Shown in pieces: positions 5,302 to 54,864 of a stretch of 64,000 bases of DNA. Each line of letters starts with the position of its first letter. The first letter of the stretch is position 1. This stretch comes from a virus. Position numbers and translations under genes: made by a program. The notes beneath the pieces are model-generated. The model ran no database searches, was not told the origin of the DNA, and was given only the letters and a program-made list of their open reading frames with translations. The stretch covers positions 1-64,000 of the IMG/VR virus record IMGVR_UViG_3300002461_000812; one strand, written 5' to 3'.

Positions 5302-6204
5302 TCAGCCCTGCTCGAAGAGGTTCGGCCAGCGCTTGCGGGCGATGTCGCGCCACTTGAGAGCGAACCGCTGGAACTCCTTGTCGGCCGCCTCCGAGCACCG
5401 CTCCTTGAAGAGTTTGCTCAGGGCGAGCGGGTTCGTCGTCCACTGCATCGAGGTGCATGCCTGCATCGGGAGCAGGCCCGCCGCGCACTCGTAGATGCGC
5501 TTGCGGTCGATGGCCTTCGGCTTCTCGCCGTGGCGACGCTCCCACGCACTCTCCTCTTCTTCGATGAATGTGAGGTAGTTGCCGTACGCCTGCTTCATCG
5601 CGACCCCGAAGCTGGTGAACGCTTCGCCGGCCGACGTGGACTCTCTTGTGCGCTCGATGATGTACGGCGGCACCGCGAAATGCCCCGGGTGGAACGTGTA
5701 GCGCGTGCTCTCCTGGGAGGGGCTACCCTCCTCCGAGCGATCGGCGCCGACGTAGTGCCGGATCAGTTCGTGCGACACGCGTCGCGAGATTCCCGCGATG
5801 AAGAAGGTCATCTTCGCGTGGTACGCGACGCTCGCGTGAGGAAGGATCTTCGGATCATCGGGGAAGAGCATTCGGCCGATGTATTCGGCGTTGTCCTTCC
5901 TCCCCGCTTTGAGGCCGTACGAGTGGTAGCACTCACGTCCCCCCAGTTCGACGAGCAGCTCGTTGTCGGTGAGCTTGCGCTGCTCACCATCGGGCGTGCC
6001 TCCCTTCGGGTGATGCCAGCCGAGGCCACCGTGGGGGAAGAGCGCCATCGCTCGCTCGTGAGCGGCGTCCGGCAAGTTCTCCGGGACGCACTCCGGACGG
6101 TAGTCCTCGACCCAGTCGAGGAGCTGATTCATCCCATCCACGTCGAGCTTCATCTCGCCGAGCACGATCACGGTCGGCTCGGTCACCAGTCGAATGTCGG
6201 TCAT
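5302..6204 (-). CDS. thyX: flavin-dependent thymidylate synthase ThyX
   Basis: FFIAGISRRVSHELIRH...SQESTRY and a C-terminal TNPLALSKLFKERCSEAADKEFQ resemble the ThyX signature. The RHR motif reads RHY here. Start at ATG 6204 with an ATGA overlap. Confidence 0.8.
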   Translation of the reverse strand: MTDIRLVTEPTVIVLGEMKLDVDGMNQLLDWVEDYRPECVPENLPDAAHERAMALFPHGGLGWHHPKGGTPDGEQRKLTDNELLVELGGRECYHSYGLKAGRKDNAEYIGRMLFPDDPKILPHASVAYHAKMTFFIAGISRRVSHELIRHYVGADRSEEGSPSQESTRYTFHPGHFAVPPYIIERTRESTSAGEAFTSFGVAMKQAYGNYLTFIEEEESAWERRHGEKPKAIDRKRIYECAAGLLPMQACTSMQWTTNPLALSKLFKERCSEAADKEFQRFALKWRDIARKRWPNLFEQG

Positions 6205-6404
6205 CGGGTCGGATCCTTCCGTACTTTCTTCCACTTGAGAACGTCTACAGAGATGAATGACTTGCAGGACGGGCACACGACGTAGTTCCCGTCGCGCTGA
6301 TCCGGCTTCACGTCTTTCGGCTCGAACTCCACGGTCGCGCCGCAGGAGTCCTTCCAGATCGCGATCTCTCGCATGGGCGGTGGCGACTTGATCACGCGCG
6401 CCAT
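6201..6404 (-). CDS. small protein with CxxC motif (67 aa)
   Basis: ATG 6404 overlaps the upstream stop (TGATG). Contains VVCPSCKSF. Confidence 0.6.
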   Translation of the reverse strand: MARVIKSPPPMREIAIWKDSCGATVEFEPKDVKPDQRDGNYVVCPSCKSFISVDVLKWKKVRKDPTR

Positions 6405-6790
6405 CACTCGCTCCACTGGAGGGCGATGAGATGGGCGTTCAGTTCGACCAGGGCGCGCTTGCTGTCGTGGTGTCGGATGTGTCCGACGGTCAGGGCGAGG
6501 TGAACCGGAAGCTCCCAGGCCGAGGCCACCTCTTCGGCGGTCATGCTGAACTCGGGTCCGTCGCGGTCGGGGTGATCAGAGTCACGCGCCAGATACCAGC
6601 GGGCCTTGTCGAGGTCTTGCTTCTCGGTCCCCTTGTGCGGGGCGCGCAGGATGTACTTGAGCGCGTTCCCCATGCAGAAGCCCAGCGACCAGTCCTCGAT
6701 GACCTTGATCGTCTCGTACTTCGCGGTGCCGTCGGCTTCCTTCGGGCCGCCCATGTTGTAGTGGGCGGGGTGGTTGACCTGGTCGGCCAT
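6404..6790 (-). CDS. DUF3310 phage protein
   Basis: NHPAHY...IKVIEDW...GNALKYILRAPHKG...DLDKARWYL is the classic DUF3310 pattern. Confidence 0.8.
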   Translation of the reverse strand: MADQVNHPAHYNMGGPKEADGTAKYETIKVIEDWSLGFCMGNALKYILRAPHKGTEKQDLDKARWYLARDSDHPDRDGPEFSMTAEEVASAWELPVHLALTVGHIRHHDSKRALVELNAHLIALQWSE

Positions 6791-7001: not shown

Positions 7002-7661
7002 CTACTCGAACGCGATCTGGACCTTGGGCTTCCTGAGCCCGGACCAGATCTCCACCTGCTCGGGACGGATGCCGTCCTGGAGGAGCTGGCCGACCACGGT
7101 CTTCACCTCGCCCTGGGTCGTCCGGATGATGTTCTCCGGGGGAGCGGACGCGCCTCGGTAGTCGGCCCTGGTGCTGTCCGCGAGGACCAGGACCAGCACC
7201 GGATCGGACGGGCTCGTCGCCTTGGCGGCGAAGCCATCGGCCGGCTTGGCCGGGTTTGAGGTCACCTGGCCCACGGACGGCGTCGGGGAGATCGACTCGG
7301 CCATCGCCACCACGTCCGCGCCGTAGGCGCCCTCGACGCTGGGCAGCGCCTTCTTCTCTCGCTGGAGCGCTTCGATGTCGTCCCCTTCGACGACGGCCAC
7401 GATCTGGCGTGTCCCGCCACCGATGGATCTGACCACGGCGTAGAGCATCTCCTCGTTGAACTGCTCCGAGAGGTCGATCAACCAGCCAGCTCCGTGCTGG
7501 TCGCTGAACGACTTGGTGCTGGTGGTTCCCCAGCCACGAGCTACCCCGCGGCTGATTTTCGTCCTTACCTCCCCCGGCTGCACCGACAGACCCGTCCTGC
7601 GCAGGTGCTCCACCAGCCCGAGCACCGCTGGCTCCAGAACGACGACCTCCGGATTCTCCAT
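7002..7661 (-). CDS. hypothetical protein (219 aa)
   Basis: Internal ATG 7661 of ORF 7002..7808, preceded by AGGAGAGG ([20 protein letters not shown]...). Confidence 0.7.
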
Positions 7662-7720: not shown

Positions 7721-7748
7721 ACCCTACGCCATCACCTGCGTTTGTCAA
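7721..7748 (-). promoter_or_regulatory. sigma70-like promoter TTGACA-N16-TAGGGT
   Basis: Minus strand. Produces a ~55-nt leader containing the hairpin at 7684-7704 and the palindrome at 7673-7685. Confidence 0.45.
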
Positions 7749-7863
7749 CAGAAACGTCGGCCCATCTGGCGTCAGTGGGGTCGGAAGCGAAAGTCTCGAA
7801 CAATCCACGTGATTCGGCTAATCTTGGGGTGACCCGGCGCGGTTCGGGCTGCGGGAACTGCGC

Positions 7864-8691
7864 ATGGACCAAAAAGCCAACAAATCCGACTCGGAAGAGA
7901 TCGAGAAGCTCCGTGCGGACCTGGAGCGGGAGCGCGCCACCAACCGGGCCGTCGAGGCCAGGGTCACCAGGTACGTCCGCGAACTGGAGCGCTCGAACGC
8001 CGAGTTGGAGCAGTTCGCCTACGCCGCCAGCCACGATCTCCAGGAGCCCCTGCGGATGGTGGTCCAGTTCGCCACCCTCCTGGAGCGCGACCTGCGGGCC
8101 CAGTTCCCCGAGGCCGTCACGGGCGATCTGGAGGTCTGCCTCAAGCACATGGGCAACGGCGCCGAGAGGGCCAAGAGGCTCATCGACGGGCTCCTCTCCT
8201 ACTCAAGGGTGGGGCGCCAAGCGGAGTTCGTCAGCGTGTCCCTGGATGGGGCGCTGGATGAAGCCATCGCGCTCCTCAACGGCGCCGTGACCGAGGCGGG
8301 CGCGGTCATCACCAGGGACCCGCTACCGGTCGTCTGGGGCGACATGGGGATGGTGTCCAGGGTCTTCTTGAACCTCATCACGAACGCCATCCGTTTCGCG
8401 AAGGATGGCGAGCCAGCTCGCATCCATGTCACATGCGAGGACCTGGGTGACGAACTGGAAGTGTCGGTGAGCGACTCGGGCATCGGCATCGACCCGCGTC
8501 ACGCCGAGCGCATCTTCACCATCTTCGCTCGTCTCAATCCCGAGAAGAACGGGACGGGCATCGGACTCGCGGTCTGCAAGAAGATCGTCGAAAAGCATGG
8601 GGGTCGGATCTGGGTGGAGTCGGTTCCAGGCCAGGGAGCGACCTTCAAGTTCACGCTCCTCAAGCAGGAGCCCGGCAACCCTGGCGTATGA
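7864..8691 (+). CDS. cytoplasmic sensor histidine kinase (coiled coil + HisKA + HATPase_c, with no TM or sensor domain)
   Basis: H-box FAYAASHDLQEPLR, N-box NLITNAIRFA, G1 DSGIGID, G2 GTGIGLAVCKKIVEKHGG. Only about 55 aa of coiled coil precede the H-box. Confidence 0.9.
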   Translation: MDQKANKSDSEEIEKLRADLERERATNRAVEARVTRYVRELERSNAELEQFAYAASHDLQEPLRMVVQFATLLERDLRAQFPEAVTGDLEVCLKHMGNGAERAKRLIDGLLSYSRVGRQAEFVSVSLDGALDEAIALLNGAVTEAGAVITRDPLPVVWGDMGMVSRVFLNLITNAIRFAKDGEPARIHVTCEDLGDELEVSVSDSGIGIDPRHAERIFTIFARLNPEKNGTGIGLAVCKKIVEKHGGRIWVESVPGQGATFKFTLLKQEPGNPGV

Positions 8692-9140
8692 CCATCACCA
8701 CCCCGCCAAAGAAGAACAAAGCCGATGTCCTCCTGGTCGAGGACAACGCGGCCGACGTGTACGTGACGCGGCTCGCCTTCGCGAAGGGCCGCGTTGCGGT
8801 GTCGCTTCACGTCGCAACGGACGGCGACGACGCCATGCACTTCCTTCGCAAGCAGGGGAAGTGGCTCGGTGCACCGCGTCCGGATCTCGTGATCCTCGAC
8901 CTCAACATGCCGCGTCGCAACGGGAGAGAGGTCCTCGCCGAGATGCGAGCTGACCCGTTGCTGCGCCGGATCCCGGTGGTGGTCTTGACCAGCTCGTCAG
9001 CAGACGCGGACATCTTCGACGTGTATGATCTCGGTGCGAACGCTTGCTTCACCAAACCAAGCGACTTCGATTCCCTCACCCAGATCGTCCTGACGTTGGA
9101 AGATTTGTGGTTCGTGCTCGGTCAGCTTCCGTCGAGGTGA
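8688..9140 (+). CDS. single-domain response regulator (CheY/Rcp1-like receiver)
   Basis: LLVEDN acidic pocket, DLVILDLNMP phospho-Asp, VVVLTSS and FTKP Lys. ATGA overlap with the kinase gene. Confidence 0.9.
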   Translation: MTITTPPKKNKADVLLVEDNAADVYVTRLAFAKGRVAVSLHVATDGDDAMHFLRKQGKWLGAPRPDLVILDLNMPRRNGREVLAEMRADPLLRRIPVVVLTSSSADADIFDVYDLGANACFTKPSDFDSLTQIVLTLEDLWFVLGQLPSR

Positions 9141-9144
9141 TGCC

Positions 9145-9972
9145 GTGACCACCTACTCCATCCTCCTGGTCGAGGACAACGCAGGCGACGCCGACTACAT
9201 CCAGCGCGCGCTCCGACGGAGCGAGGACGGTGTTCGGTTCGAGGTCTCGGTCGTTGGATGGCTGAACACGGCGCTCACCACCGTTGGGGCTAGGTCCTTC
9301 GATGCGGTCCTGCTCGACCTGTCCCTTCCGGACTCCCAGGGCCTCGACACCGTCGTCCAGTTCCTCGCCTCCGCTCCCCAGCTCCCGGTGATCGTCATGA
9401 CCGGTCACGACGACATGGTCACCGGGATCAACGCCGTCCGGTACGGTGCCCAGGACTACCTCATCAAGGGGGACACGGGGGACCGTTCCCTGGAGCGCTC
9501 GATCATCTACGCCATCGAGCGCAAGCGGGCCGACATGGTCGGCAAGAAGCTGCTCCGAGCGAGCATCGGAACGCTCTCCAGCGCGGGCGGTGGAGCGACA
9601 GCGCTCGTCCACGAGCACCTGGCACACGTTGCCGACTTCCTCCACGACCTGCGCGCGTACATCGCGCGCAACGCGCCCGCGCACGCGGACAGCATCGAAG
9701 CCATCGCCTCCAACCACCAGATCGACGTGGTGCTCAGGGAGATCAGGGCCATCGTCCAGATGGACGTGCAGTCCACGAGGCCGGGGACGGCGCGCCCCAA
9801 GAAGATCTCGGAGGAGGCGTTGCAGGCGGTGTCGTCCTTGTCCTCCGCCTCCGGAAGGCCGGTAGCTCCGTCCTCTGCGCGCGGAGCCCTGCTCTCGGTG
9901 ATCGAGTCGTCCGGCGAGATCGGAGAAAGGTACGCCGTTCCGGGCGTGAAAAATGGTTCCGACGATGAGTGA
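9145..9972 (+). CDS. response regulator: receiver domain plus a C-terminal helical region of about 150 aa with unknown function
   Basis: ILLVEDNAGD, DAVLLDLSLPD, VIVMTGH and DYLIKG. The C-terminus (HEHLAHVADFLHDLRAYI...) has no recognisable DNA-binding output. GTG start 4 nt after the preceding stop. Confidence 0.85.
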   Translation: MTTYSILLVEDNAGDADYIQRALRRSEDGVRFEVSVVGWLNTALTTVGARSFDAVLLDLSLPDSQGLDTVVQFLASAPQLPVIVMTGHDDMVTGINAVRYGAQDYLIKGDTGDRSLERSIIYAIERKRADMVGKKLLRASIGTLSSAGGGATALVHEHLAHVADFLHDLRAYIARNAPAHADSIEAIASNHQIDVVLREIRAIVQMDVQSTRPGTARPKKISEEALQAVSSLSSASGRPVAPSSARGALLSVIESSGEIGERYAVPGVKNGSDDE

Positions 9973-10522
9973 CTTGGATGGCATTCGGCGAGACGTAGCC
10001 AAGCTGGCCTCTGACCTGTCGCGTGGCGTGAGCGCGACATCGGTCCTGATCGAGCAGATCCAGAAGCAGCTCAACGAGGTCGCTCGTCGGCTCGACGAGA
10101 AGGTCCGCGACGACCACCAGGGCGCGTTGAAGCTGGCTGCCGACCTGGCGGAGATCAAGACCAAGCTCGACGGGCTGCGGACCGACGCCGACCACCTCTC
10201 CGGAACGCCCGAGCGCATCGCCAAGCTGGAGGCCGGTCACGAGCACGTCAGGGCCGACATCACCGGCAAGCACGACATGGCGAAGGACCTGGCGAAGGTC
10301 ACGGTCGAATCGCACGAGAAGAAGGAAGACCGCCTTCTGGAGGAGAAGAGGATCAAGGCCGAGCAGCACAAGGCCAAGCTCCAGTTCTGGGGGGCCGTGG
10401 CGGTCGTCTCGTTGCCCGGCATCATCGCGCTCCTCTGGCACCTCTTCGGTCTTCCAGGATCCCCGCCTACGACTCCCTCGGCGCCCCGACCGCCGACGCA
10501 CTCTGCGGCTGAGCCTCACTGA
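9965..10522 (+). CDS. coiled-coil protein with C-terminal transmembrane anchor
   Basis: ATG 9965 overlaps the receiver gene stop by 8 nt. Long heptad-like region followed by FWGAVAVVSLPGIIALLWHLFGL. Confidence 0.7.
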   Translation: MSDLDGIRRDVAKLASDLSRGVSATSVLIEQIQKQLNEVARRLDEKVRDDHQGALKLAADLAEIKTKLDGLRTDADHLSGTPERIAKLEAGHEHVRADITGKHDMAKDLAKVTVESHEKKEDRLLEEKRIKAEQHKAKLQFWGAVAVVSLPGIIALLWHLFGLPGSPPTTPSAPRPPTHSAAEPH

Positions 10523-11963
10523 CGGCCGGCAAGCGGATGGCAGGGATGTACGGCTTCGACTCGTCGCCGACGACCGTCGGATCGATCCACCGGGTGAGGA
10601 TGGCGATCCACTCGTCCGGAGCCTTCGGCGGCTGCCCACGCTCCATGAGCTGGCGGTAGGCGTTCGAGGTCGGTTCGTCGATCGTCCAGACCTGGTACTC
10701 CGCCTCCTGGAGCTTCTGCGCGTCCTTCGTGGAGAGCGGCAGCTTCCCGCGCCGGATGTAGCAGCGCTCGTGGCCGCGTCGGTCGTGCCGGTACGCCAGC
10801 TCGCGAGAGATCTGCGCGAGAGCCTCACGCGAGCGCGCGCCCGAGTCCTCGATGAGCTTCTTCTCCATCCGGACCGTGTAGTAGGGCTTCGGGATGAGGC
10901 CCTGGACCTTGAGCCTCTTGCTCTTCTTGCCCCAGTCGTGGCGCTGGTTGTTGGTCAGCCGAGTCTCGATGACGAGCTGGCGGTGGTCGTTGACCACGGC
11001 CACCAGGTGCGTCGAGATCCAGGGCGCCATGTTCAGCACCGGGTGATGCCAGATCCCGTCCATGCACACGATGTTCGGCATGATGTAGTTGTCCTCCGGC
11101 TCGACGGCCTGGATGACCTCGACCACCCACCCGCCGGTCGGTCCGGTCCACACCACGTACCCGAGGATCGCCGCGGCGATGACCTCGCGGGCATCCATGC
11201 CGACGGCTCTCGCCTTCCACTGGTACTCAGCGAGAGAGACGCCGTGTCCGAGGCCGAAGTAGCAGGCGTCGAACGGGAGCGGATCGGGGAACGGAACCCG
11301 GGAGCCAGCCTCGTCGATCCGATCCGTGTACTGGTCGCTGTCCTCCTTCGAGGGCAGCTTGCCCTTGCCCAGGTCGGCCCAGTTCTGCTTCGCGATCTTC
11401 GTGGTCGTGTAGTGGTCGGCCGCCTCCCAGATGGTCGTGAAGTCGCTCGGCGAGAAGTCGAAGATGCGCGCGTTGCGCATGGTGGCCCAGAGCTGCCGAG
11501 CGAACTCCTTGCCACGGTCGATCGGTGCCCCGTCGAGAGTCCGGAGCGCACCGCTCTCGTCGCGGGCAGCCTGGAGCAACGACTCCATGATCCGGAGGTA
11601 CCCGGCGAGAGTCTCGTCGCCTGGCTTGTGCCGTCCCCTGCTTCCGATCGAGGCCGCGACGGCCGGCGTGCGCTTGGCCGCTGCATCGACCCGCGCGGCC
11701 ACCCGTTCGGCGGCCCGCTCACGGAGCCACCGGTACCGAGCTGGATCGGTCACCATCGCCCCGGTGAAGGCGAGCGCCAGGCGCTTGTGGAGGTGCTCGT
11801 TCAACCCCTGCACCGCGCGTGTGGTGGCGCTCTCGAAGGCGGCGTTGAGCGATGCCTGGACGCCGAGCTTGGTCAGCGCATCGACGTACCAGTCGGCCGC
11901 CTCGTCGATGGCGCGCTGCTCGGTCGCGGTGATGCCGAGGGCCTGTTCCACGGGGGTTCTCAC
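10467..11963 (-). CDS. hypothetical protein (498 aa)
   Basis: Protein-like part of ORF 10467..12065. GTG 11963 forms a GTGA overlap with the upstream stop (VRTPVEQALGITATEQRAIDEAADWY...). The 3' end converges on and overlaps 9965-10522. Confidence 0.7.
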   Translation of the reverse strand: MRTPVEQALGITATEQRAIDEAADWYVDALTKLGVQASLNAAFESATTRAVQGLNEHLHKRLALAFTGAMVTDPARYRWLRERAAERVAARVDAAAKRTPAVAASIGSRGRHKPGDETLAGYLRIMESLLQAARDESGALRTLDGAPIDRGKEFARQLWATMRNARIFDFSPSDFTTIWEAADHYTTTKIAKQNWADLGKGKLPSKEDSDQYTDRIDEAGSRVPFPDPLPFDACYFGLGHGVSLAEYQWKARAVGMDAREVIAAAILGYVVWTGPTGGWVVEVIQAVEPEDNYIMPNIVCMDGIWHHPVLNMAPWISTHLVAVVNDHRQLVIETRLTNNQRHDWGKKSKRLKVQGLIPKPYYTVRMEKKLIEDSGARSREALAQISRELAYRHDRRGHERCYIRRGKLPLSTKDAQKLQEAEYQVWTIDEPTSNAYRQLMERGQPPKAPDEWIAILTRWIDPTVVGDESKPYIPAIRLPAVSEAQPQSASAVGAPRES

Positions 11964-12556
11964 AGCTTCTCCTTCGCGGCCTGAGCGAGCTGGCCTTCGT
12001 AGTACCGGCGCTGCTTCTGGAGCTTCTTGAGGGCCGTCTCGGCGCGCTTGCGCTTCGACTCCCACTTGACGATCCGGGCCTCGATGGAGGTCAACTTCGT
12101 GACCCGTCTCTCCTCGATGGAGACCGACTTCTTCGTCGGCAGCGGTTCTTCCTTCACGACTTCGCCGTATCGGGCGAGGAGGTGGGCGTGCATTTCACCG
12201 GCGGCGGCCGTGCCTCTATCCGACCAGCGGTTGACGGCGTTGGGCATGGCGGCGTGGTGGACGCCGAACAGGTGGTAGACCTCGTGCCGGATCAGCCAGA
12301 TGAGCTGAGCGAGACTCACCTCATTGCGCGCGATCCGGATGCGGCACCAGCCCCCGCCCAGCGACGCTCGCCCCGAGCATCCGCCCCGGCGCGTGTAGAC
12401 GTACTCGACGTGGCAGTGCTCCCGGATGAACTCGGCCCGGCGCTTCGTAACGACCGGTAGGTCCTTCGAGAAGACGCGCTCCACATCGGAGACGACCGAC
12501 AGGAAGATCGAGCGCAGCATGACGCCCGAGTACCGGGTGGCGTTGGTGACCTTCAT
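11960..12556 (-). CDS. putative zinc metallopeptidase (HExxH, SprT-like)
   Basis: Internal ATG 12556 (MKVTNATRY...). LIRHEVYHLFGVHH contains HExxH, followed by a coiled-coil basic tail. Confidence 0.55.
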   Translation of the reverse strand: MKVTNATRYSGVMLRSIFLSVVSDVERVFSKDLPVVTKRRAEFIREHCHVEYVYTRRGGCSGRASLGGGWCRIRIARNEVSLAQLIWLIRHEVYHLFGVHHAAMPNAVNRWSDRGTAAAGEMHAHLLARYGEVVKEEPLPTKKSVSIEERRVTKLTSIEARIVKWESKRKRAETALKKLQKQRRYYEGQLAQAAKEKL

Positions 12557-13260: not shown

Positions 13261-13784
13261 GCCGCCTCCAGGACCATGAACGCCTCGATCGGCGGCTCGG
13301 GGATGAGGACCATGAATGCCTCGACCGGGGGCTCGGGGATGAGGACCGCGTCGTGGGTCATGTCCCAGACCGGAGGGGGCGAGGTCACGACGACCGAGAG
13401 GGTTGCCAGCTCCGACTCGACTCGCGCGTCGCGCTCGGCGCGAAGGCGGGAGATGAGGGCGTCGTGGGCCGCCTTGCTGGCCGCGCGCACCGCACGCGCC
13501 TTGGTCACGAGGCGAGTCGTCTCGGCCTCCGCCGCCGCGTGGGCAGCCGCCTTGGCCGCCAGCTTCTTGGCCGCTCGACGCTCCGCCGCGCGCTCCTTGC
13601 GCGCCTGGTAGACGGGGTCGGTGCCTGGGTACCAGCGGACGCTCACGCCGGGGCAGAGGACCTTGGCCCAGCCACCCTTCTTCGAGGTGGCCATGGGGCC
13701 GTAGCCGGCCGGAGGAGTCGCCCAGCCCACGATCACACGAAGCTCGCCACCACCCAAACGCTCGACCTTGACCGCTGCACCCAT
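13257..13784 (-). CDS. hypothetical protein (175 aa) with a duplicated C-terminal 12-aa unit
   Basis: GAAGGAGAG SD. Ala/Lys-rich helical centre. C-terminus reads LIPEPPVEAFMV LIPEPPIEAFMV. Confidence 0.7.
   Translation of the reverse strand: MGAAVKVERLGGGELRVIVGWATPPAGYGPMATSKKGGWAKVLCPGVSVRWYPGTDPVYQARKERAAERRAAKKLAAKAAAHAAAEAETTRLVTKARAVRAASKAAHDALISRLRAERDARVESELATLSVVVTSPPPVWDMTHDAVLIPEPPVEAFMVLIPEPPIEAFMVLEAA
13271..13342. repeat. 36-bp tandem duplication (2 copies) inside CDS 13257-13784
   Basis: GGACCATGAACGCCTCGATCGGCGGCTCGGGGATGA is followed by a near-identical copy with 3 differences. Confidence 0.9.
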
Positions 13785-13808
13785 GACGCACTCTCCTTCT
13801 GCACTGAG

Positions 13809-13836
13809 TTCTTATCATGTAACTAGCGTTGGTCAA
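13809..13836 (-). promoter_or_regulatory. sigma70-like promoter TTGACC-N16-TAAGAA
   Basis: Minus strand, divergent from promoter 13875-13902. Confidence 0.6.
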
Positions 13837-13874
13837 TGTGAGAACATCTCTCTAGAATGGCCAAAGATAGATTC

Positions 13875-13902
13875 TTGACAGACTCATTTTAGACTGTAAG
13901 AT
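13875..13902 (+). promoter_or_regulatory. sigma70-like promoter TTGACA-N16-TAAGAT, leaderless
   Basis: CTTGACAGACTCATTTTAGACTGTAAGATgggtgcATG. Confidence 0.75.
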
Positions 13903-13908
13903 GGGTGC

Positions 13909-14685
13909 ATGGGCAAGACGACGAACAAGGGAACCTGCGGAGCCTGCTTCCGCTCGATGACGCTCGGCGCGGACGGCAAGGTCGTTCGCCACGGCTGGCG
14001 CGAGGCTGGCGGCACTCGCCGGGTCGGCAGCTACGGCCACGTCTTCCACTCCGGCGCCTGCTTCGGGGTCGGCTGGCTGCCCTACGAAGTCAGCTCGGAC
14101 TGCACGACGGCCTTCGTCGAGCAGGTGCTCTTCCCGATGGGCGTGAACGCCCAGGGCTACCTGACCCACCTGGCCACCCGCCCGGCGCTCGTCTACGAGG
14201 GCGCGACCTGGGCCGCGAACTTCACCGAGGTGCGCAACGCGCCCGGGTGTCGTGGTCACCGGGGCGGCTCGGACTACTGGGACGGCTACTACCGCTGGTC
14301 GCTCAAGCTCCGCGACGGCGACCCGGCCGTGACCCTCAAGAATCACCCCGAGAACTGGGGCGGGGACAAGGTCCCGAGCTACGACACCTACCTCGCGAGC
14401 AAGGTCAGCGACGGCCAGCGCACCTGGGAGGGGATCGCCAAGGACGCGCTCTACTGCCTCTCGATGGTGTCGAACTGGAAGCCGGTCGCGGTGAAGACGG
14501 TCGAGAAGAAGCTCCCCCTGCTCCACACGGGCCACACGAACTCCCTCTGGCTCGCTCGCTGCCGGATGACCTTCGGCCGGGGGCCCAGCCTCCGGGTCAC
14601 GCAGGTGGCCGCCGACGTGACCTGCCCGAAGTGCCTGGCCATCATGGCGAGGGAAGCGGAACGGGCCGCAAAGAAGTCGGCCTAG
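13909..14685 (+). CDS. hypothetical Cys-rich protein (258 aa), leaderless
   Basis: ORF track. GTCGACF...HSGACFG...CPKC. ATG lies 6 nt after the -10 element. Confidence 0.75.
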   Translation: MGKTTNKGTCGACFRSMTLGADGKVVRHGWREAGGTRRVGSYGHVFHSGACFGVGWLPYEVSSDCTTAFVEQVLFPMGVNAQGYLTHLATRPALVYEGATWAANFTEVRNAPGCRGHRGGSDYWDGYYRWSLKLRDGDPAVTLKNHPENWGGDKVPSYDTYLASKVSDGQRTWEGIAKDALYCLSMVSNWKPVAVKTVEKKLPLLHTGHTNSLWLARCRMTFGRGPSLRVTQVAADVTCPKCLAIMAREAERAAKKSA

Positions 14686-19718: not shown

Positions 19719-19927
19719 GGGTCTTGCGCGCTTTTGCGGCCCTGAGTAGACCGATCGTCCGCCTCAGCTTCGGATACACCAGCCCCGCCACGCCGAGGGG
19801 GAAACTCGGCGCGGAGGTTCGGGCGTTGGTGCGCCCAAGCTGGAGGTCACGAAAGCCAGGGTACGTGACGCTGACCGATGTATCTCAAGCCGATCCTTCA
19901 TGCAACGTATCGTCACGCAGTGTCATC

Positions 19928-21220
19928 ATGTCGATGGCCGCGAAGAAGCCTCGGAGGAGAACCCCCCCGAAGGATCCCGCGTTCGTCCGTGAGCGACGCC
20001 TACTAGATGAAGGAGGAAGAAACTCCTCAACCATACGCAGTCCATGGGGAAGTGCGGACGGCGTCGAGGGGAGGGAGACGTACTACTCCGGGGGCTACAG
20101 CGACAACCTGCTCCAGTGGAAGGGGCTGGTGGGACGCTTCTGGTCCGAGATGCTCAAGGACATCGAAGAGCCCTCTCTACGGACCGCTCTCTCCAAGCGA
20201 CTGGAGTCTTTCCTCACCTGCGGGAAGGCCGTCTCTGTCCGGAGGTGCGGCGGGTGCCAGACCGACAGGGAGGGCAGCGGCACCTTCCGTGGAACGAGGA
20301 CCTGCAAGACCAGAGCGTGCCCTGTCTGCTCGAAGCTCCGGTCAGAGCGCTACTCCGAGTGGGTCGAGTCCGCCTGGTCCCTCATGGAGGCGCGGCCGGG
20401 GTACGCGTGGCGGTGGCTGACCCTCACGACGAAGTACGACCCCTACTCCAAGGAGGACGCCTCCTGGCAAAGCCTGCGAGGGCGCGCGCGGGCATGCGCG
20501 AAGGCGGCCGAGAAGGTCTGGACCAAGCTCCTCAAGGGCAAGGGCGGTGAACTCAGTACAGGCGCGATCCGGACGATCGAGGTCGCGCGCCGGGGAATGG
20601 TCCACGTCAACCTGGTCTACTTCGGCCCGGCGCTCGACATCGACGAGGTCGAGGCGCTGATCTCGAAGGTCTCCCCCCACATGGGCCACGCCCACTTCCA
20701 GAAGGTGAACCGCAAGCCTGCGCCGCCTGAACTCAGTTCCGACGGTCGGAAGAAGAAGCGGCCGAAGGGCGACGAGGAGTTCGAGCTGGACGAGTCGGAC
20801 GAGCGCGGCTCGCTCGAAGGGCTCAAGCGGGTGGCGAAGTACATCTCCAAGGGCCTCGACCACGAGACCAGCTCCATGAAGATGCGAGACGAGGACTGGG
20901 TGACGGGAGCCCAGCCGGTGGTGACGGTGGATCCGGAGCTGGCGGTGGCGTGGGAGTTCGCGACCTACAAGATGCACCTGGTCCAGCGGTACGGCGCGCT
21001 CCGGAAGCTGGAGCTGGACGAGCACGCGGAGAAGTCGAAGTCGGACAACGAGGACGACGCCCACATCGCCTGTAAGTGCTGCGGCGCCGTGGGAAAGTGG
21101 AAGACGGGCTTCCGCTCGACCCGGGAGTGGTTCGGCGAATGCCACGAGCGAGGCATCAAGGCGTTGCACGGAACGCCGGATGACTGGCTGCCGAGAGACT
21201 GGGTAGAGCTGAACTCTTGA
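19928..21220 (+). CDS. HUH-type rolling-circle replication initiator-like protein (Rep_1/pC194-like motifs) with an N-terminal zinc ribbon
   Basis: Motif 1 WRWLTLTTKYD, motif 2 GMVHVNLVYFGP, motif 3 LKRVAKYISKGLDHE, plus CGGC...CKTRACPVC. Start set at ATG 19928 because the in-frame stretch upstream has poor third-position GC. Confidence 0.6.
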   Translation: MSMAAKKPRRRTPPKDPAFVRERRLLDEGGRNSSTIRSPWGSADGVEGRETYYSGGYSDNLLQWKGLVGRFWSEMLKDIEEPSLRTALSKRLESFLTCGKAVSVRRCGGCQTDREGSGTFRGTRTCKTRACPVCSKLRSERYSEWVESAWSLMEARPGYAWRWLTLTTKYDPYSKEDASWQSLRGRARACAKAAEKVWTKLLKGKGGELSTGAIRTIEVARRGMVHVNLVYFGPALDIDEVEALISKVSPHMGHAHFQKVNRKPAPPELSSDGRKKKRPKGDEEFELDESDERGSLEGLKRVAKYISKGLDHETSSMKMRDEDWVTGAQPVVTVDPELAVAWEFATYKMHLVQRYGALRKLELDEHAEKSKSDNEDDAHIACKCCGAVGKWKTGFRSTREWFGECHERGIKALHGTPDDWLPRDWVELNS

Positions 21221-30003: not shown

Positions 30004-32979
30004 ATGAGCCTCGCCGATCTTCTCTCCGAGAGCATGGCCGACCTCGTCGAAGTCAGCGACGAGACCCTGCTCAACTTCCTCAAGACCGACCAGGGCAAGA
30101 AGAAGGCGGCCAACGCCATCTACGCGTCCAAGCACAAGGACTTCCGAGGCAAGAACGACGACGGCGAGCGCTCGGTGCTCTACAACGCGGGCTCGGGCGG
30201 GACGCAGAGCTGGCCTGTCGATGGGGCATCGGCGGAGCAGTTGCTCAAGCTCCTCAAGGCCGACCCGAAGGCCATCGCGAAGCTCAAGCTGGGCGAGGAA
30301 GCGGAGCCGACCGAGGCCGAGCTGGAGGACGAGTACACGGCGATGATCTCGGCCCTCAGCGAGGAGACCGGCGAGCCGCTTTCCCTCCTGGAGGCGATGA
30401 ACGGCAAGATCAGCACGTTCCTCACCGTCTTCTCGTCGATGCTCACGCAGTACGACCAGCTCCTCATCAAGAACGAGACGAAGCGCGGCGGTCGGGGGAA
30501 CATCTACCGCCTGAGCCTCTGGTTCGAGGCGCTCGACAAGGTGAAGCAGCGCGTCTCCTCGATGCTCGGGGACGACAGCACGGACGCCATCAAGGCGCTC
30601 CGCGCGGCCGTGGACAAGGAGTTCACCTCCGGCAACCCCGCCGACAAGTTCCGCAAGGCGATGGACGCCTACATCGAGAAGGGCACGCTCCCGAAGATCC
30701 CGATCTCCAAGGAGGTCAAGGCCCAGGTCCAGGCCGAGAAGAAGGCGGCCAAGGAAGCGGCTGCCAGGGCGAAGGCTGACAAGGTCCAGGGCGGGCCCGA
30801 GAGGCTCGTGGCTGGCCAGGGTCGGCCGGGCCAGAAGTTCGACTACGGCGGCGTGACGATCTCGACGACGCTCCACGACATCGGCGGCAAGAACGAGGAC
30901 ATCGTCGCTGGCGTCGGTCGTCTCGACGAACTGGGCGGTGGCCGGTACAGCGGCGGCGGTCGCGGTGGCGATCCGCGCTGGATCGAGGCGAAGTACCCTG
31001 GCGTCGCGAAGGACGGCACCTCGTTCCGCAAGGGCGAGCGCGTGCTCTACTTCCCGAACGGCAAGAGCTACTACGTCGGCAAGCAGGCGGAGAAGGAGTG
31101 GAAGGACTTCCTCTCGGCCAAGGGCGACGAGGAGAGCATGCCGTACGCGGAGGCGGCGGACGGCGGCGCAGCCGAGGCCAAGAAGACGCTCGACATGCTC
31201 CTCAAGGGCTCGAAGGTCGGGAAGCGGATCACCCTCAAGGACCTGCGTCTGCCGAAGAGCGTCGCCAAGTACCTCACCCACCTGGTGGCGTCCGGGGCCG
31301 ACTTCGCCGACGGTACCAGGGTGCTTCTTCGTCCCAAGGACGAGAAGGGGAACTACGTCCCCGACGAGTACATCATCGGCGGCGTGGGCGGTCGAACGGA
31401 GTCGCTCGATCTGAGCCGCCTCAGCGGCCAGCTCGAAGAGGCGCTCTCCGAGCCGCTCCACGAGGAGCAGACCGCCCACCACCACTACGACGGCAAGAAC
31501 TGGTACGTGGACACCGGCTTCGTCTCCGCCTCCGAGAAGGCGATGCCCGGCTTCTCCCTCTCGCACATGGGCATGGGCGAGTTCTCGCTCAAGGGTCCCG
31601 ACGGCGAGATCGAGTTCGACCGGATGCGCGGCAAGGACTTCCCGGGCCAGGTCGGCCGGAGCCACAAGCTCTACGACAACAAGGACGGGGCCCTCATCAA
31701 GAAGCTCATCGCGGCGATGAAGGGCAAGTCCCAGGAGATGAAGGCCGAGAGCCTCGACGAGGCGGTCTCCGGGGCCATCACCGGGGCCGCCGGCCTGCTG
31801 TTCGCCAAGCTGGTGAAGGGTGGCGTGAGCCGCGACGACATCAAGCTCTCCGGCAACTCGGTCAGCGGGACCAACAACGGACACCCCTTCCGCGTCGAGT
31901 TCGAGGACGTGAGCGGGGGCAAGGTCCGGGTGGAAGTCTTCGTGGACGACAAGTCGCGTGGCGGCGGCGCGGTCCCCCCGGACGCGGTGGCGAGCAACAT
32001 GGGCAAGGCGGCCCTCTCGATCATCTCGCTCACGAAGTCCTCGAAGACCGAGAGCCTCGCCGACAGCCTCGACGAGGCCAACCTCTCCTCCAGCTCCAGC
32101 TACAAGGAGATCAAGAAGGAGGCCGGCAAGTGGGCGAAGAGCTTCGCCGCCGACCTCATGAAGAAGATCACCCCGAAGCCGAAGTCGATCGCGGTGGTCA
32201 ACCCGGACATGGGTCGGCCCATGGCGAACTGGGACTACCGCATCCACTCGAAGTTCGACATCACGCTGGCCTCGGGCGAGACGCTGTCCGCGTTCGTGTC
32301 GATGAACGTCGCGGACGGTGAGTGCTCGGGCAACGTCACCCTCGACGACAAGTGGGGCGGCACCATGGCCACCGCTCGGCGCGGGACCAGGGACCAGGCC
32401 ACCTGGGTCCTCGTGGACGAGCTGGCGACCCACCTGAGTCGTGGGGAGCAGAACGAGTCCCTGGACGAGGCGCAGCGCGGAGCGCCCGGCCTGGCTTTCG
32501 ACGACGAGGACGCGGCCACCAAGCCCGGCGCGTTCAAGATCAGCTCCAAGGCGATGGCCATCTACAAGGGCGCGCTCGGTGACCAGTGGGAGGGGCCGGA
32601 GTCCACGGTCTTCAAGCGCTACCACGGCGTCATCACGGGCCTGAGCCAGCAAGAGCTGCTCGACCTGTTCGATGCCGAGCGCATGGACCTCGCCCAGGAC
32701 ATGATCGCGAGCAAGCCCAAGGCGGCCTTCAACAAGTGGCTGGCCAGGGCAGCGAAGGTCAGCCCTGCCCTCGGGAAGCTCGTCCGGTCTCGACCGGACT
32801 GGTCGTCCATCCTCTTCTACATGACGGTCATGCGCATCTCCGGGCGCGACATGGCCGACATCATCCTCAAGCGGTACTTCGAGACCGAGACCGACCACAT
32901 CGGCGCCGTGAAGGCGAAGATGAAGGTCGAGGATCTGGAAGAAGCCATCCGCTCGTCGCGCGACTCCTCCTTCGGCTGA
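30004..32979 (+). CDS. large hypothetical protein (991 aa) with a repeated ESLDEA motif
   Basis: ORF track. Lys/Glu-rich with plausible composition. No catalytic motif recognised. ESLDEA occurs at aa 582-587 and 818-823, and ESLADSLDEA at aa 683-692. Confidence 0.8.
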   Translation: MSLADLLSESMADLVEVSDETLLNFLKTDQGKKKAANAIYASKHKDFRGKNDDGERSVLYNAGSGGTQSWPVDGASAEQLLKLLKADPKAIAKLKLGEEAEPTEAELEDEYTAMISALSEETGEPLSLLEAMNGKISTFLTVFSSMLTQYDQLLIKNETKRGGRGNIYRLSLWFEALDKVKQRVSSMLGDDSTDAIKALRAAVDKEFTSGNPADKFRKAMDAYIEKGTLPKIPISKEVKAQVQAEKKAAKEAAARAKADKVQGGPERLVAGQGRPGQKFDYGGVTISTTLHDIGGKNEDIVAGVGRLDELGGGRYSGGGRGGDPRWIEAKYPGVAKDGTSFRKGERVLYFPNGKSYYVGKQAEKEWKDFLSAKGDEESMPYAEAADGGAAEAKKTLDMLLKGSKVGKRITLKDLRLPKSVAKYLTHLVASGADFADGTRVLLRPKDEKGNYVPDEYIIGGVGGRTESLDLSRLSGQLEEALSEPLHEEQTAHHHYDGKNWYVDTGFVSASEKAMPGFSLSHMGMGEFSLKGPDGEIEFDRMRGKDFPGQVGRSHKLYDNKDGALIKKLIAAMKGKSQEMKAESLDEAVSGAITGAAGLLFAKLVKGGVSRDDIKLSGNSVSGTNNGHPFRVEFEDVSGGKVRVEVFVDDKSRGGGAVPPDAVASNMGKAALSIISLTKSSKTESLADSLDEANLSSSSSYKEIKKEAGKWAKSFAADLMKKITPKPKSIAVVNPDMGRPMANWDYRIHSKFDITLASGETLSAFVSMNVADGECSGNVTLDDKWGGTMATARRGTRDQATWVLVDELATHLSRGEQNESLDEAQRGAPGLAFDDEDAATKPGAFKISSKAMAIYKGALGDQWEGPESTVFKRYHGVITGLSQQELLDLFDAERMDLAQDMIASKPKAAFNKWLARAAKVSPALGKLVRSRPDWSSILFYMTVMRISGRDMADIILKRYFETETDHIGAVKAKMKVEDLEEAIRSSRDSSFG

Positions 32980-40736: not shown

Positions 40737-40809
40737 GTCCGCGTAGCTCAGGGGATAGAGCGGTCGCTTCCTAAGCGAATGGTCGGAGGTTCGATTCCTC
40801 CCGCGGGCG
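40737..40809 (+). tRNA. tRNA-Arg (anticodon CCT, reads AGG), no encoded CCA
   Basis: Hand-folded cloverleaf: acceptor GTCCGCG/CGCGGGC (one G-T pair), D arm GCTC-AGGGGATA-GAGC, anticodon stem-loop GTCGC-TTCCTAA-GCGAA, T arm GGAGG-TTCGATT-CCTCC, discriminator G. Confidence 0.9.
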
Positions 40810-40842
40810 CTGGCGCAGTAGCAGGAGCAGAAGGAGAAGATC

Positions 40843-52758: not shown

Positions 52759-54864
52759 GTGCCCATTCTCGACGACAAGGGGCGGCCTCGCTCGGTTCGG
52801 ACCGAAGACGAGGAAGAGGAACTTCTTCTCGAACAGATCTCGCGTCTCCCGCCTGACGAACAAGAGGCGCTTCGAGAGGTCCACGACATCGCCATCGCCG
52901 GTCGGTGGGGCGAGTACGAGCAGCTTGCCGAGATCGAGTACGCCCGCAAGCCGGTGGGCATCGAGACGTTCCTGACGGACCCGTACTTCCTCGGGGAGAG
53001 CGGCAACTCGCTCTGGCCGCGATTGCGGGCCGACATGATCGAGCTGTTCGAGGGCGACTACTACGAGGGGGTGCTCGGTGGCTCGATCGGATGGGGCAAG
53101 AGCTTCTTCGCGACCTGCGCGATGGCCTACACCATCTACCAGATGTCGTGCCTGCGGAACCCGCAGAAGACATACGGCATCGACTCGGGGTCGTTCATCT
53201 ACATCGCCATGCTGAGCGTCACCGAGAAGGTGGCCCGTCGCGTGGCGGTCAACGAGCTGATCGGCAAGATCGAGCACTCGCGGTACTTCAAGGAGCACTT
53301 CCCGCTCAAGGCCGCGCCGTCGCAGTTGGAGATCAAGTTCCCCAACCAGATCCAGGTCGTGGCCGGTTCGACCGGAAGCTCGGCCATCATCGGCCTCAAC
53401 GTCTTCGCCGGGTTCATCGACGAGTCGAGCTTCATGGGCGACGCCAAGGAGGTCGATCGCTCTGGCAAGTTCATCGCCGCGGACAACGGCGAGAAGATCT
53501 ACAAGTCGATCATCCGCCGCATGAAGTCACGCTTCCAGCGTGCGGGACGGTTGCCGGGCGTGCTCCTGACCGTCAGCTCGAAGGAGCGCCCAGGTGCCTT
53601 CATCGAGAAGCGGGTGCGCGAGGCTCGTGAGCAAGGCGACCAGCACTTCTTCGTTCGGGAGTACGCGACGTGGGACGTGAAGCCGGCCGAGTTCTTCTCG
53701 GCGGAGACGTTCAAGGTCGTCGCCGGCAACGACAAGATCCAGAGCCGCATCCTCACCTCTGGCGATCCGAAGGAAGAGGAGCGGTACAGGGAACTCGGCC
53801 TCCAGGTCATCGACGTGCCGGTGGACTACCGGTCCGACTTCGAGCGAGACATCGACGGCTCGCTGCGCGACGTGGCGGGCATCGCAACCGAGTCGGTCAG
53901 CCCGTTCATGCAGCGGACCGACACCATCTTCGATGCGGCCGACCCGGCGCTGCCGATGGGCACCAGGGATGAGGACGGGACGCCCATCGAGGAGTGGGTG
54001 GCGAACCGTCCGCTCCAGATCCACTGGCCGTCGATCGCCGTGCAGTTCGAGCGGAAGCTGGCGGGCGGGTTCGTCGAGGTCGGCTGGAGGCCACTGCGCC
54101 ACCCGAACGCCATCCGCTACGTCCACATCGACGCCTCGCTCACCGGGGACGCGACGGGCCTGGCCATCGGGCACATCGCCAACTGGACCGAGGTCGTTCG
54201 GAGGGCCTTCGGCGGGGACGAGTACACCGAGCTGGCGCCGGTGCTGGAGACCGACCTTCTGCTCCGGATCATCCCCCCGCCTGGCGACGAGATCTTGCTC
54301 TCTGACGTGCGAAACATCGTCTACCAGTACATCGAGCACGGCTTCCAGGTCGGCTACGTCTCGATGGACCAGTACCAGTCCGCCGACTCGCTCCAGCAGT
54401 TCCGGAAGCGAGGAATCGAGGCCGAGTTGGTGTCCGTGGATCGGACCACCGAGCCCTACGATGTACTCAAGGGTGCGTTCTACGAGAAGCGGATCCGTAC
54501 CCAGGCTCACGCCTACCTCGCCATCGAACTGAGGAACCTCCAGCGGGTTCCCACCTCCGGCGGTCGGGTGAAGATCGACCACCCGAAGCTCATGACCGGG
54601 CCGAAGGGGAACCAGGTCCGAGGCACAAAGGACCTCGCCGACGCCCTGGCCGGCCTCGTCTACGGCATCACCCAGCGGAGCCCCGGACGACCGATCCCGC
54701 CCATGCTCGGGACGAGCGACTCGGCTACGTCCGACAAGAAAGACGATCCCTCGTGGGTCACCGGTGGATCGGTCATGGTAGGAGAGGACTCTGGCAGAAA
54801 CCCCTCCCGAGGCGGTATGGTGAAGCCCGGTGGAGGTCCCCCCCTCCCGTTCGTCAAGGGGTAA
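52759..54864 (+). CDS. terL: terminase large subunit
   Basis: Walker A GGSIGWGKS, Walker B FAGFIDESSF, nuclease-domain VHIDASLTGDATGLAIGH. Confidence 0.9.
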   Translation: MPILDDKGRPRSVRTEDEEEELLLEQISRLPPDEQEALREVHDIAIAGRWGEYEQLAEIEYARKPVGIETFLTDPYFLGESGNSLWPRLRADMIELFEGDYYEGVLGGSIGWGKSFFATCAMAYTIYQMSCLRNPQKTYGIDSGSFIYIAMLSVTEKVARRVAVNELIGKIEHSRYFKEHFPLKAAPSQLEIKFPNQIQVVAGSTGSSAIIGLNVFAGFIDESSFMGDAKEVDRSGKFIAADNGEKIYKSIIRRMKSRFQRAGRLPGVLLTVSSKERPGAFIEKRVREAREQGDQHFFVREYATWDVKPAEFFSAETFKVVAGNDKIQSRILTSGDPKEEERYRELGLQVIDVPVDYRSDFERDIDGSLRDVAGIATESVSPFMQRTDTIFDAADPALPMGTRDEDGTPIEEWVANRPLQIHWPSIAVQFERKLAGGFVEVGWRPLRHPNAIRYVHIDASLTGDATGLAIGHIANWTEVVRRAFGGDEYTELAPVLETDLLLRIIPPPGDEILLSDVRNIVYQYIEHGFQVGYVSMDQYQSADSLQQFRKRGIEAELVSVDRTTEPYDVLKGAFYEKRIRTQAHAYLAIELRNLQRVPTSGGRVKIDHPKLMTGPKGNQVRGTKDLADALAGLVYGITQRSPGRPIPPMLGTSDSATSDKKDDPSWVTGGSVMVGEDSGRNPSRGGMVKPGGGPPLPFVKG

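Follow-up and report, generated by a model that had tools for sequence, protein, structure and literature searches.

Two-component systems are regarded as cellular sensory equipment and, to our knowledge, the phage-encoded kinases and receivers that stand in databases are almost unstudied. The closest described relatives of the locus analyzed here are the cellular Cph1-Rcp1 and CphA-RcpA systems. The locus itself is a four-gene cassette on the plus strand, at positions 7864-10522 of a 64,000-nt stretch of viral DNA (IMG/VR virus record IMGVR_UViG_3300002461_000812, positions 1-64,000), which we call the window. It resembles the Cph1-Rcp1 and CphA-RcpA systems in (i) its kinase core, (ii) the match of its first receiver over the full length, and (iii) the overlap of the kinase gene with the receiver gene. 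It differs from Cph1-Rcp1 systems in that its kinase lacks PAS-GAF-PHY or any other sensor and is not a phytochrome, and in that the cassette is phage-encoded and adds a second receiver with a phage-specific domain, as well as a membrane protein. An initial annotation, made from the letters of this stretch alone, had described an operon-coupled kinase-plus-receiver set inside the phage genome. Our sequence comparisons likewise point to a complete and apparently functional set, and we consider it well supported that the cassette is a real, selected feature. Its genes and domains are the following:

7864-8691, plus strand: gene 1, histidine kinase, 275 residues (open reading frame list)
8688-9140, plus strand: gene 2, receiver 1, 150 residues (open reading frame list)
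9145-9972, plus strand: gene 3, receiver 2 with a C-terminal domain (CTD), GTG start, 275 residues (open reading frame list)
9145-9519, plus strand: receiver domain of gene 3, residues 1-125 (Response_reg, 63 bits over residues 6-109; phospho-acceptor D58)
9520-9972, plus strand: CTD of gene 3, residues ~126-275, all-helical, the proposed output domain (profile searches and AF2 model)
9965-10522, plus strand: gene 4, membrane-anchored protein, 185 residues (189 residues from an alternative ATG at 9953)

These four coupled plus-strand reading frames lie between two minus-strand gene blocks, with coordinates and junctions as initially described. The kinase and receiver 1 genes share an ATGA overlap at 8688-8691, and the receiver 2 gene and gene 4 share an 8-nt overlap, ATGAGTGA, when gene 4 is taken to start at 9965 (independent gene callers differ, placing the start at 9953 or 9965); both of these previously noted overlaps can be read directly in the sequence. 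At the remaining junction, a 4-nt gap separates the receiver 1 stop (9140) from the receiver 2 GTG (9145), and a GAGG precedes the start of gene 3.

To place the four products, we used the profile searches that the initial annotation had proposed, and these matched HisKA, HATPase_c, and two Response_reg domains in Pfam. In the gene 1 product, HisKA covers residues 48-117 (28.0 bits; cut-off, 26.9) and HATPase_c covers residues 164-267 (101 bits), and the protein is accordingly made up of an N-terminal helix (residues 1-47), a DHp domain with H57, and a catalytic ATP-binding domain. The residues of the H, N, G1, F, and G2 boxes, namely H57, N170/N174, D204-x-G206-x-G208, F218, and G230-x-G232-x-G234, are invariant in 14 kinase orthologues, as is the H-box SHDLQEPxR around H57; the H-box, N-box, G1, and G2 motifs earlier read as intact are thus conserved throughout. 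We found no sensor domain in the kinase, in which 47 residues precede HisKA and no Pfam domain falls within the first 59 residues; no transmembrane segment in the kinase or in either receiver; and, from the upstream stop to the kinase ATG at 7864, no other codon at which translation could start. Because of these three observations, the gene 1 product is best described, from its sequence, as a soluble, sensorless class-I histidine kinase with predicted activity, in agreement with the earlier view of a kinase devoid of transmembrane and sensor domains.

The closest solved structures to the kinase are 8f71 (5e-45) and bacteriophytochrome kinase modules. A role as a bacteriophytochrome/Cph1 photoreceptor was considered and rejected, since the PAS-GAF-PHY bilin-binding module is absent and the resemblance is confined to the kinase core. 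When the PAS-bearing kinases of two other contigs described below (L022 and L007) are aligned against the window kinase, the PAS domain falls cleanly into a gap that separates the N-terminal helix from the one leading into the H-box, a pattern consistent with loss of PAS in the window clade or with its gain elsewhere; the N-terminal helix of ~47 residues aligns with PAS-DHp linkers. Coiled coils had been proposed for both the kinase N terminus and gene 4. This coiled-coil character is deduced from composition, from weak SMC/Rad50/MukB-type matches, and from the PAS-DHp linker alignment.

The gene 2 product, previously read as a stand-alone receiver, matches Response_reg with 69 bits and aligns over its full length (residues 12-149) with 5te9 (2e-38), RcpA 1k68 (3e-35), and Rcp1 1i3c (2e-28). 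Its C-terminal EDLWFVL aligns against EEFWL, the xxFW-type helix of Rcp1/RcpA, and its active site is present in the translation, with the acidic pair E18 and D19, the phospho-acceptor D71, T101, and K123. By these sequence criteria, receiver 1 is a single-domain response regulator of the Rcp1/RcpA type ('phytochrome response regulator'). Its gene adjacency and the ATGA overlap suggest that it would be phosphorylated by the neighboring kinase. Single-domain receivers have been described as sinks, hubs, or direct enzyme regulators (PMC5964349, PMC12802240), and by analogy with these and with branched pathways of cells, the simplest role for receiver 1 would be to compete for phosphoryl groups or to modulate the pathway.

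The receiver of gene 3 is of the NtrC/DctD/LuxO-like type, with a GAQDYLIKG motif. Its E10, D11, D58, T86, and K108 are invariant in the window clade, and across a 41-member receiver-CTD family K108 is invariant, while E10, D11, and D58 are at least 90% conserved. The acidic pocket, phospho-Asp, Thr/Ser, and Lys that both receivers had been said to keep are indeed intact in both, and conserved among the receiver 2 orthologues. No substitution of the catalytic His or of a receiver Asp, an outcome that the initial annotation had weighed against its own reading, was seen in the cassette, where these residues are intact and conserved.

Behind this receiver lies the CTD of ~150 residues, for which we obtained no match in Pfam, NCBIfam, or PDB sequences, even when it was used as a profile. 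A word search recovered 7 homologues among 5.8 billion clustered proteins, and a profile search returned 39 matches among 1.84 billion representatives, ~37 of which are real once a frameshifted fragment and one false positive (a TPR protein) are set aside; almost all of those that remain are 247-298 residues long and carry a receiver in front. No CTD relative was found by tblastn among deposited phage genomes, and a reference-genome scan with a CTD pattern, covering one-genome-per-species bacterial and archaeal contigs, gave 86 pattern matches and 0 relatives, at a sensitivity limited by the use of a single peptide pattern; the alignment of the wider CTD family is too variable to give a search pattern.

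Structure prediction, which had been suggested for the C-terminal region of 9145-9972, gives an all-helical CTD. An AF2 model of gene 3 from a 7-sequence alignment (predicted local distance difference test score [pLDDT], 57) was discarded, and the model used here comes from a 41-sequence alignment (mean pLDDT, 87). It comprises a canonical receiver (pLDDT 94-98), whose last helix, alpha5, continues as a long helix (residues 113-145), and five further CTD helices (residues 151-176, 178-190, 193-209, 221-235, and 242-263; pLDDT 60-94), which agrees with the earlier description of a second receiver fused to a helical region. Foldseek searches of the PDB with the whole model were dominated by the receiver: the top match was 6oap, a dual-sensor kinase, DgcR (6zxb) ranked 17 and PA3702 ranked 25, and the remaining matches were plain receivers. 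In 6oap and 6zxb, which have a receiver-coiled-coil-effector arrangement, alpha5 runs into a long helix as it does in the gene 3 model. This likeness suggests signaling by helix or dimer rearrangement, as far as the model goes, although it is limited to the receiver and the first long helix, and the effectors are unrelated. In a viral structure library, the best match to the model spans its full length and is A0A8S5LY51, a 'Response regulator protein' of Myoviridae sp. ctrnx29. We detected no recognizable DNA-binding output of the OmpR, NarL, NtrC, or LytTR classes in gene 3, and no Pfam or NCBIfam match beyond the receiver; the CTD has a pI of 7.3. The earlier statement that neither receiver has an output domain is nevertheless apt to mislead, since the helical domain of gene 3, conserved and restricted to phages, sits where the cellular archetype operons described below have their output domain.

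Gene 4 encodes a long, charged, helical/coiled-coil N-terminal part and a single hydrophobic segment at residues 145-163 of 185 (Kyte-Doolittle 19-residue mean, 2.09), where a C-terminal membrane anchor had been expected. Because basic residues precede this C-terminal segment and a Pro-rich tail follows it, the sequence points to a tail-anchored protein that lies mostly in the cytoplasm; the predicted periplasmic tail is ~20 residues long and poorly conserved. Gene 4 matched no family in our searches, which gave weak coiled-coil matches (SMC, Rad50, and MukB-like), and the 8 homologues recovered by search all come from the window phage clade. In every search made, both the CTD and gene 4 were found in phage-like contexts alone.

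The viral setting of the cassette is clear from the window, which encodes a gp23-type major capsid protein, a gp21-type prohead protease, a gp20-type portal, DnaB-like and other helicases, and a UvsX-like recombinase; the source is a T4-like virus of roughly 190-200 kb. We found no near-identical DNA among deposited phages, and the capsid and portal proteins show at most 34% identity to those of any deposited phage. The exact kinase is present on the 9 contigs read, from several independent samples and in a constant context, and on one of these, a 186-kb contig from an activated-carbon metagenome, the cassette is internal. Short sensorless kinases with 59-98% identity to the window kinase form a tight group, whereas the nearest clearly cellular kinases, recognized by a sensor domain or by a bacterial source name, reach at most ~55%.

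We inspected six diverged relatives of the locus, namely L008 (a 200.7-kb contig), L010 (also an IMG/VR viral genome), L012, L013, L014, and L015. Each of them has the same four genes behind a minus-strand block that encodes ThyX, a DUF3310 protein, and a ~215-residue protein, while the downstream genes differ, the GC content ranges from 57 to 68%, and kinase identity ranges from 62 to 72%. Ratios of nonsynonymous to synonymous substitution rates (dN/dS) were used for L014 versus L015 alone, since more distant pairs are saturated at synonymous sites (dS 0.6-1.7) and unreliable. For this pair (dS 0.31-0.56), dN/dS was 0.045 for the kinase, 0.010 for receiver 1, 0.005 for receiver 2, and 0.096 for gene 4, and from these sequence comparisons we conclude that all four genes are under purifying selection. 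The initial annotation had also allowed for host DNA at a prophage boundary; this was not borne out, given the 186-kb contig, the T4-like genes in the window, and the synteny in at least six relatives. The defense-system models of PADLOC gave weak receiver-type or coiled-coil-type matches alone, the best being 8e-7 over 60 receiver residues.

A 453-residue open reading frame in L012 (10759-12120), which appeared to fuse receivers 1 and 2, was rejected as a scaffold-gap artefact marked by a run of X. In the public assembly of L012 (GCA_040384045.1; JAWVHH010002605.1), a run of N lies inside both receiver genes and yields this false 453-residue frame, which has no Pfam annotation.

Further, the module extends beyond the window clade. 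Around a distant CTD family member (P0137), two contigs (L019 and L020) carry a sensorless kinase, a 147-residue Rcp1-like receiver, a receiver-CTD protein, and a 142-residue protein, which has a transmembrane segment at its C terminus and is a gene 4 homologue (hhalign, 92.6%; E 4e-7); these genes lie at a GC content of 60%, with a run of small same-strand genes of no known function and NUDIX and DnaJ-like genes. L022, an IMG/VR viral contig, contains the same four genes, with a PAS domain in its kinase and a gene 4 homologue detected by hhalign at 83.7% (E 8e-6). The CTD and gene 4 are thus adjacent, with overlapping stop and start codons, in three backbones (the window clade, L019/L020, and L022). 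On the short contig of another family member, P0150, a 148-residue receiver precedes the receiver-CTD gene. L007, an AT-rich, 298-kb IMG/VR jumbo-phage contig, encodes a PAS kinase with the same H-box (AELEQFAYVASHDLQEPLR) and both receiver types, and no gene 4; the genes concerned are at 9581-10714 (plus strand) and 13694-14577 (minus strand), and the two receiver types, ~3 kb apart on opposite strands, are 34% and 33% identical to those of the window. A protein encoded nearby in L007 (7654-9102) contains a poly-serine run of ~60 residues.

Among deposited viruses, the Microcoleus phage My-WqHQDG (OR578706.1) has the four-gene layout of the window cassette, with a 545-residue kinase bearing a large N-terminal sensor region, a 138-residue Rcp1-like receiver, then another receiver, and finally a coiled-coil protein that has a transmembrane segment at its C terminus. 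Its second receiver belongs to the same subfamily as the gene 3 receiver (hhalign, 99%), but it ends in a short tail in place of the CTD, and its fourth protein has no detectable sequence homology to gene 4. PHROG families 857, 10912, and 731 match the kinase and both receivers, and A0A8S5LY51 has been mentioned above for its match to the gene 3 model over the whole length. In contrast, phaeovirus and giant-virus kinases are large hybrid proteins and not operons. All of these records are functionally uncharacterized, and most are annotated as hypothetical. The cassette had been called unusual cargo for a phage, which is fair but incomplete, as the same set of four genes turns up in several phage backbones that look unrelated.

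The cellular kinases nearest to the window kinase share 45-55% identity with it and carry PAS, GAF, or CHASE3 sensors; sources label the kinase relatives as Cph1/COG4251 or 'bacteriophytochrome-type'. Two cellular operons have the layout of the first three cassette genes: in L016, a CHASE3 kinase is followed by a 151-residue receiver and a REC-HisKA-HATPase protein, and in L018 (Ca. Nitricoxidivorans), a PAS kinase is followed by a 153-residue receiver and a REC-GGDEF-EAL protein. They share with the cassette their gene order and receiver subfamilies, and the gene 3 receiver shares 42% identity with that of the third L016 gene, through the AIERxR linker (hhalign E 3e-28). They differ in that the phage protein has the helical CTD where the cellular proteins have a kinase or c-di-GMP output, in that the sensor has been lost, and in that a fourth gene has been added. 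Because the gene order is the same and the receiver identity to L016 is 42%, the first three genes are most likely an en-bloc derivative of a Cph1/Rcp1-type cellular operon in which the output domain was exchanged, so far as sequence comparison can tell.

The explanation that we favor, with moderate confidence, is that the cassette is a self-contained, phage-owned, branched two-component pathway in which the CTD is the output and probably works together with the gene 4 protein at the membrane. The soluble kinase dimer, once expressed, would autophosphorylate on H57, and the phosphoryl group would pass to D71 of receiver 1 and to D58 of receiver 2. Receiver 1 would serve as a competing acceptor, that is, as a phosphate sink or modulator, while the effect of phosphorylation in receiver 2 would travel along the long helix into which alpha5 extends and would change the state of the CTD, making the latter the real output. 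This output would work through contact between proteins and not through DNA binding, the most probable partner being the gene 4 protein at the inner membrane. Real phosphotransfer is predicted because the kinase and the receivers are intact and co-conserved. A CTD-gene 4 partnership is favored because the two occur in phage-like contexts alone, because they are constantly adjacent with overlapping codons, and because gene 4 is kept with or without a kinase sensor. We infer every phosphotransfer step, the function of receiver 1 as a sink, the pairing of the CTD with gene 4, and any outcome, which might be lysis timing or another membrane-level decision.

Several points weigh against this explanation. 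The evidence that links the CTD to gene 4 consists of co-occurrence and translational coupling, and the CTD fold, for which no relative was identified, could conceivably be a DNA-binding, RNA-binding, or Hpt-like fold. A sensorless kinase provides no obvious signal input, which fits a role in host manipulation at least as well. Moreover, in one receiver-CTD protein (P0149) the phospho-Asp is replaced by Gly (VVFLGLHLP), and a distant family member (P0142) has neither a kinase nor a small receiver alongside; therefore, the CTD can work without this kinase in some lineages. P0149, P0142, and P0148 form a subgroup with a divergent acidic pocket (alignment A5), and its members may be pseudo-receiver versions that work without phosphorylation.

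The alternative that survives best, although we consider it unlikely, is that the cassette hijacks host signaling: a constitutive kinase could phosphorylate Rcp1-type receivers of the host, or the phage receivers could drain host kinases, so that Cph1-fed pathways, which often involve c-di-GMP enzymes, would be rewired. The 45-55% identity of the kinase core extends to many cellular Cph1/COG4251-type kinases that have the same H-box (FAYxASHDLQEPLR), the cellular archetype operons feed GGDEF/EAL proteins, and the loss of the sensor suggests signal-independent activity. However, a kinase or a sink alone would suffice for such a purpose, whereas all four genes, including both phospho-acceptors and the phage-specific output, are under strong purifying selection, and versions of the kinase with a PAS sensor exist.

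A split sensor kinase, in which the gene 4 protein would be the missing input module, bind the kinase at its N-terminal helix, and pass on a cue from the membrane or envelope as chemoreceptors do to CheA, with the CTD acting elsewhere, strikes us as quite improbable. In its favor, the kinase is sensorless and starts with a ~47-residue helix that corresponds to a PAS-DHp linker, and the gene 4 protein is helical, membrane-anchored, and always co-inherited. Yet gene 4 is retained in L022, where the kinase has its own PAS domain, which argues against gene 4 being merely a substitute sensor; My-WqHQDG likewise has a similar fourth gene despite the large N-terminal sensor region of its kinase. Further, gene 4 overlaps the receiver-CTD gene and not the kinase gene, and its predicted periplasmic tail is short and poorly conserved.

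A multi-step phosphorelay is very unlikely. Here, the CTD would be Hpt-like, as the initial annotation had suggested for the gene 3 C terminus, or Spo0B-like, and phosphoryl groups would pass from the kinase His to the gene 3 Asp, then to a gene 3 His, and finally to the gene 2 Asp. The all-helical CTD of the AF2 model, the availability of a second receiver as the final acceptor, and the presence of two histidines, H158 and H180, that are invariant in the nine closest orthologues would all suit such a relay. In the wider CTD family, however, G, F, Q, Y, P, or R can stand at the position of H158, and V, Q, T, C, or L at that of H180. Conservation of 90% is reached by the receiver acidic pocket, Asp, and Lys, but not by any histidine of the CTD. 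Pfam gave no match of the CTD to Hpt or HisKA at E values up to 10, when 9 CTD members were scanned individually, and the CTD profile matched no Hpt, Spo0B, or ChpT among PDB sequences. A degenerate DHp domain, as in a REC-kinase hybrid, was also tried for the CTD and rejected, the profile-profile (hhalign) probability against the kinase family, including its DHp domain, being 0.5%. Because there is neither a conserved CTD histidine nor any Hpt, HisKA, or DHp similarity, a histidine-phosphotransfer role for the CTD appears unlikely on sequence grounds, and the Hpt-like assignment was not upheld.

The last alternative, that the cassette is a recent host capture, a passenger 'moron', or a product of a prophage or assembly boundary, we regard as refuted: the strand-switched island does have its own promoter-like region, and its kinase and receivers do have abundant cellular relatives, but the cassette lies within a 186-kb phage contig and was recovered in independent assemblies of several samples, its synteny persists in relatives that differ in GC content and have kinases diverged to ~60% identity, all four genes have dN/dS values far below 1, the GC content of the cassette (0.645-0.65) equals that of the rest of the window, and the CTD and gene 4 are without cellular homologues in the searches made.

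The promoter-like region just mentioned belongs to a divergent intergenic region of ~200 nt, in which an alignment of six loci (the window, L008, L010, L012, L013, and L014) reveals two conserved elements:

7721-7749, minus strand: sigma-70-like promoter, GTTGACA-N16-TAGGGT, directed leftward
7814-7824, plus strand: -10-like element, TC(G/A)GNTANNCT, ~40 nt before the kinase start, with no conserved -35

The first combines a perfect TTGACA -35 with a -10-like TAGGGT and has a single match in the 64-kb window, where 0.02 would be expected by chance, which suggests that the leftward ThyX/DUF3310 block may be read by host RNA polymerase via this putative promoter. In the second, the T, C, G, TA, and CT positions are invariant in the six loci, while the motif alone is not statistically unusual (1 match, 1.04 expected); we regard it as a candidate cassette promoter. 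A scan for consensus promoters and terminators found nothing.

The minus-strand genes on either side of the cassette are the following:

5302-6276, minus strand: ThyX, upstream flank
6404-6790, minus strand: DUF3310 protein, upstream flank
7002-7661, minus strand: protein of no known function, 219 residues by gene callers, upstream flank (maximal open reading frame to 7808)
10467-11963, minus strand: 498-residue protein of no known function, downstream and convergent, its 3' end overlapping gene 4 by 56 nt

ThyX varies in length: it has 432-443 residues in some relatives (L010 6612-7910, L014 2047-3378, and L015 2074-3405) and 291-300 residues by gene callers in others, and the maximal open reading frame in the window (5302-6276) has 324. 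In L010 and L011, an HNH/HTH_7 homing-endonuclease-like gene is inserted between the DUF3310 gene and the ~216-residue gene. The ThyX length variation and the HNH/HTH_7 gene near the cassette point to mobile insertions, perhaps an intein or an extra domain. Upstream of the window region on the 186-kb contig (L001 1-797 and 1564-2313) are minus-strand genes that include those for an RCC1/WD40-like repeat protein, a peptide deformylase, and a YAcAr-domain protein. On the downstream side, the 498-residue gene that abuts the cassette is absent from that position in L008, L010, L014, and L015.

Elsewhere in the window, three large open reading frames, at 30004-32979 (plus strand, 991 residues), 52759-54864 (plus strand, 701 residues), and 10467-11963 (minus strand, 498 residues), gave no Pfam match, and the first two, together with a 532-residue maximal form of the third (10467-12065), gave no PHROG match. 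The sole tRNA within the window is a tRNA-Arg with anticodon CCT (40737-40810, plus strand). A second 498-residue protein, encoded at 19724-21220 (plus strand), has weak matches to Rep_1 (E 7e-7, below the Pfam cut-off) and to IS91-type zinc-binding domains, and could be a rolling-circle-type replication initiator or a mobile-element relic; a gene with a faint Rep_1 match is also found in L010 (18920-20023).

Phage kinase and receiver genes as such are already on record, in PHROG families, in deposited genomes, and in viral structure libraries, and one recent preprint mentions them among the auxiliary genes of ammonia-oxidizer phages. In the literature that we searched, there was no paper describing a complete, conserved phage-borne two-component pathway, the CTD, or gene 4. 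Tentatively, we suggest that the cassette could be a phage-specific four-gene circuit, present in several large-phage lineages, in which a kinase, with a PAS sensor or without one, signals via a receiver to a domain family and a tail-anchored membrane protein that lack cellular counterparts. Such a circuit would gate by phosphorylation a decision of the phage at the host membrane, such as lysis timing, a superinfection response, or envelope remodeling, and would do more than borrow or disturb host signaling.

In summary, our analyses describe a module that is old, conserved, and selected, with an output domain and a partner found in phage-like contexts alone, and which points to phosphorylation-based regulation run by the virus. 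They also define two new protein families, namely the receiver-linked helical domain and its tail-anchored partner, and they single out My-WqHQDG, a deposited and named phage with the same gene layout, as a possibly tractable entry point.

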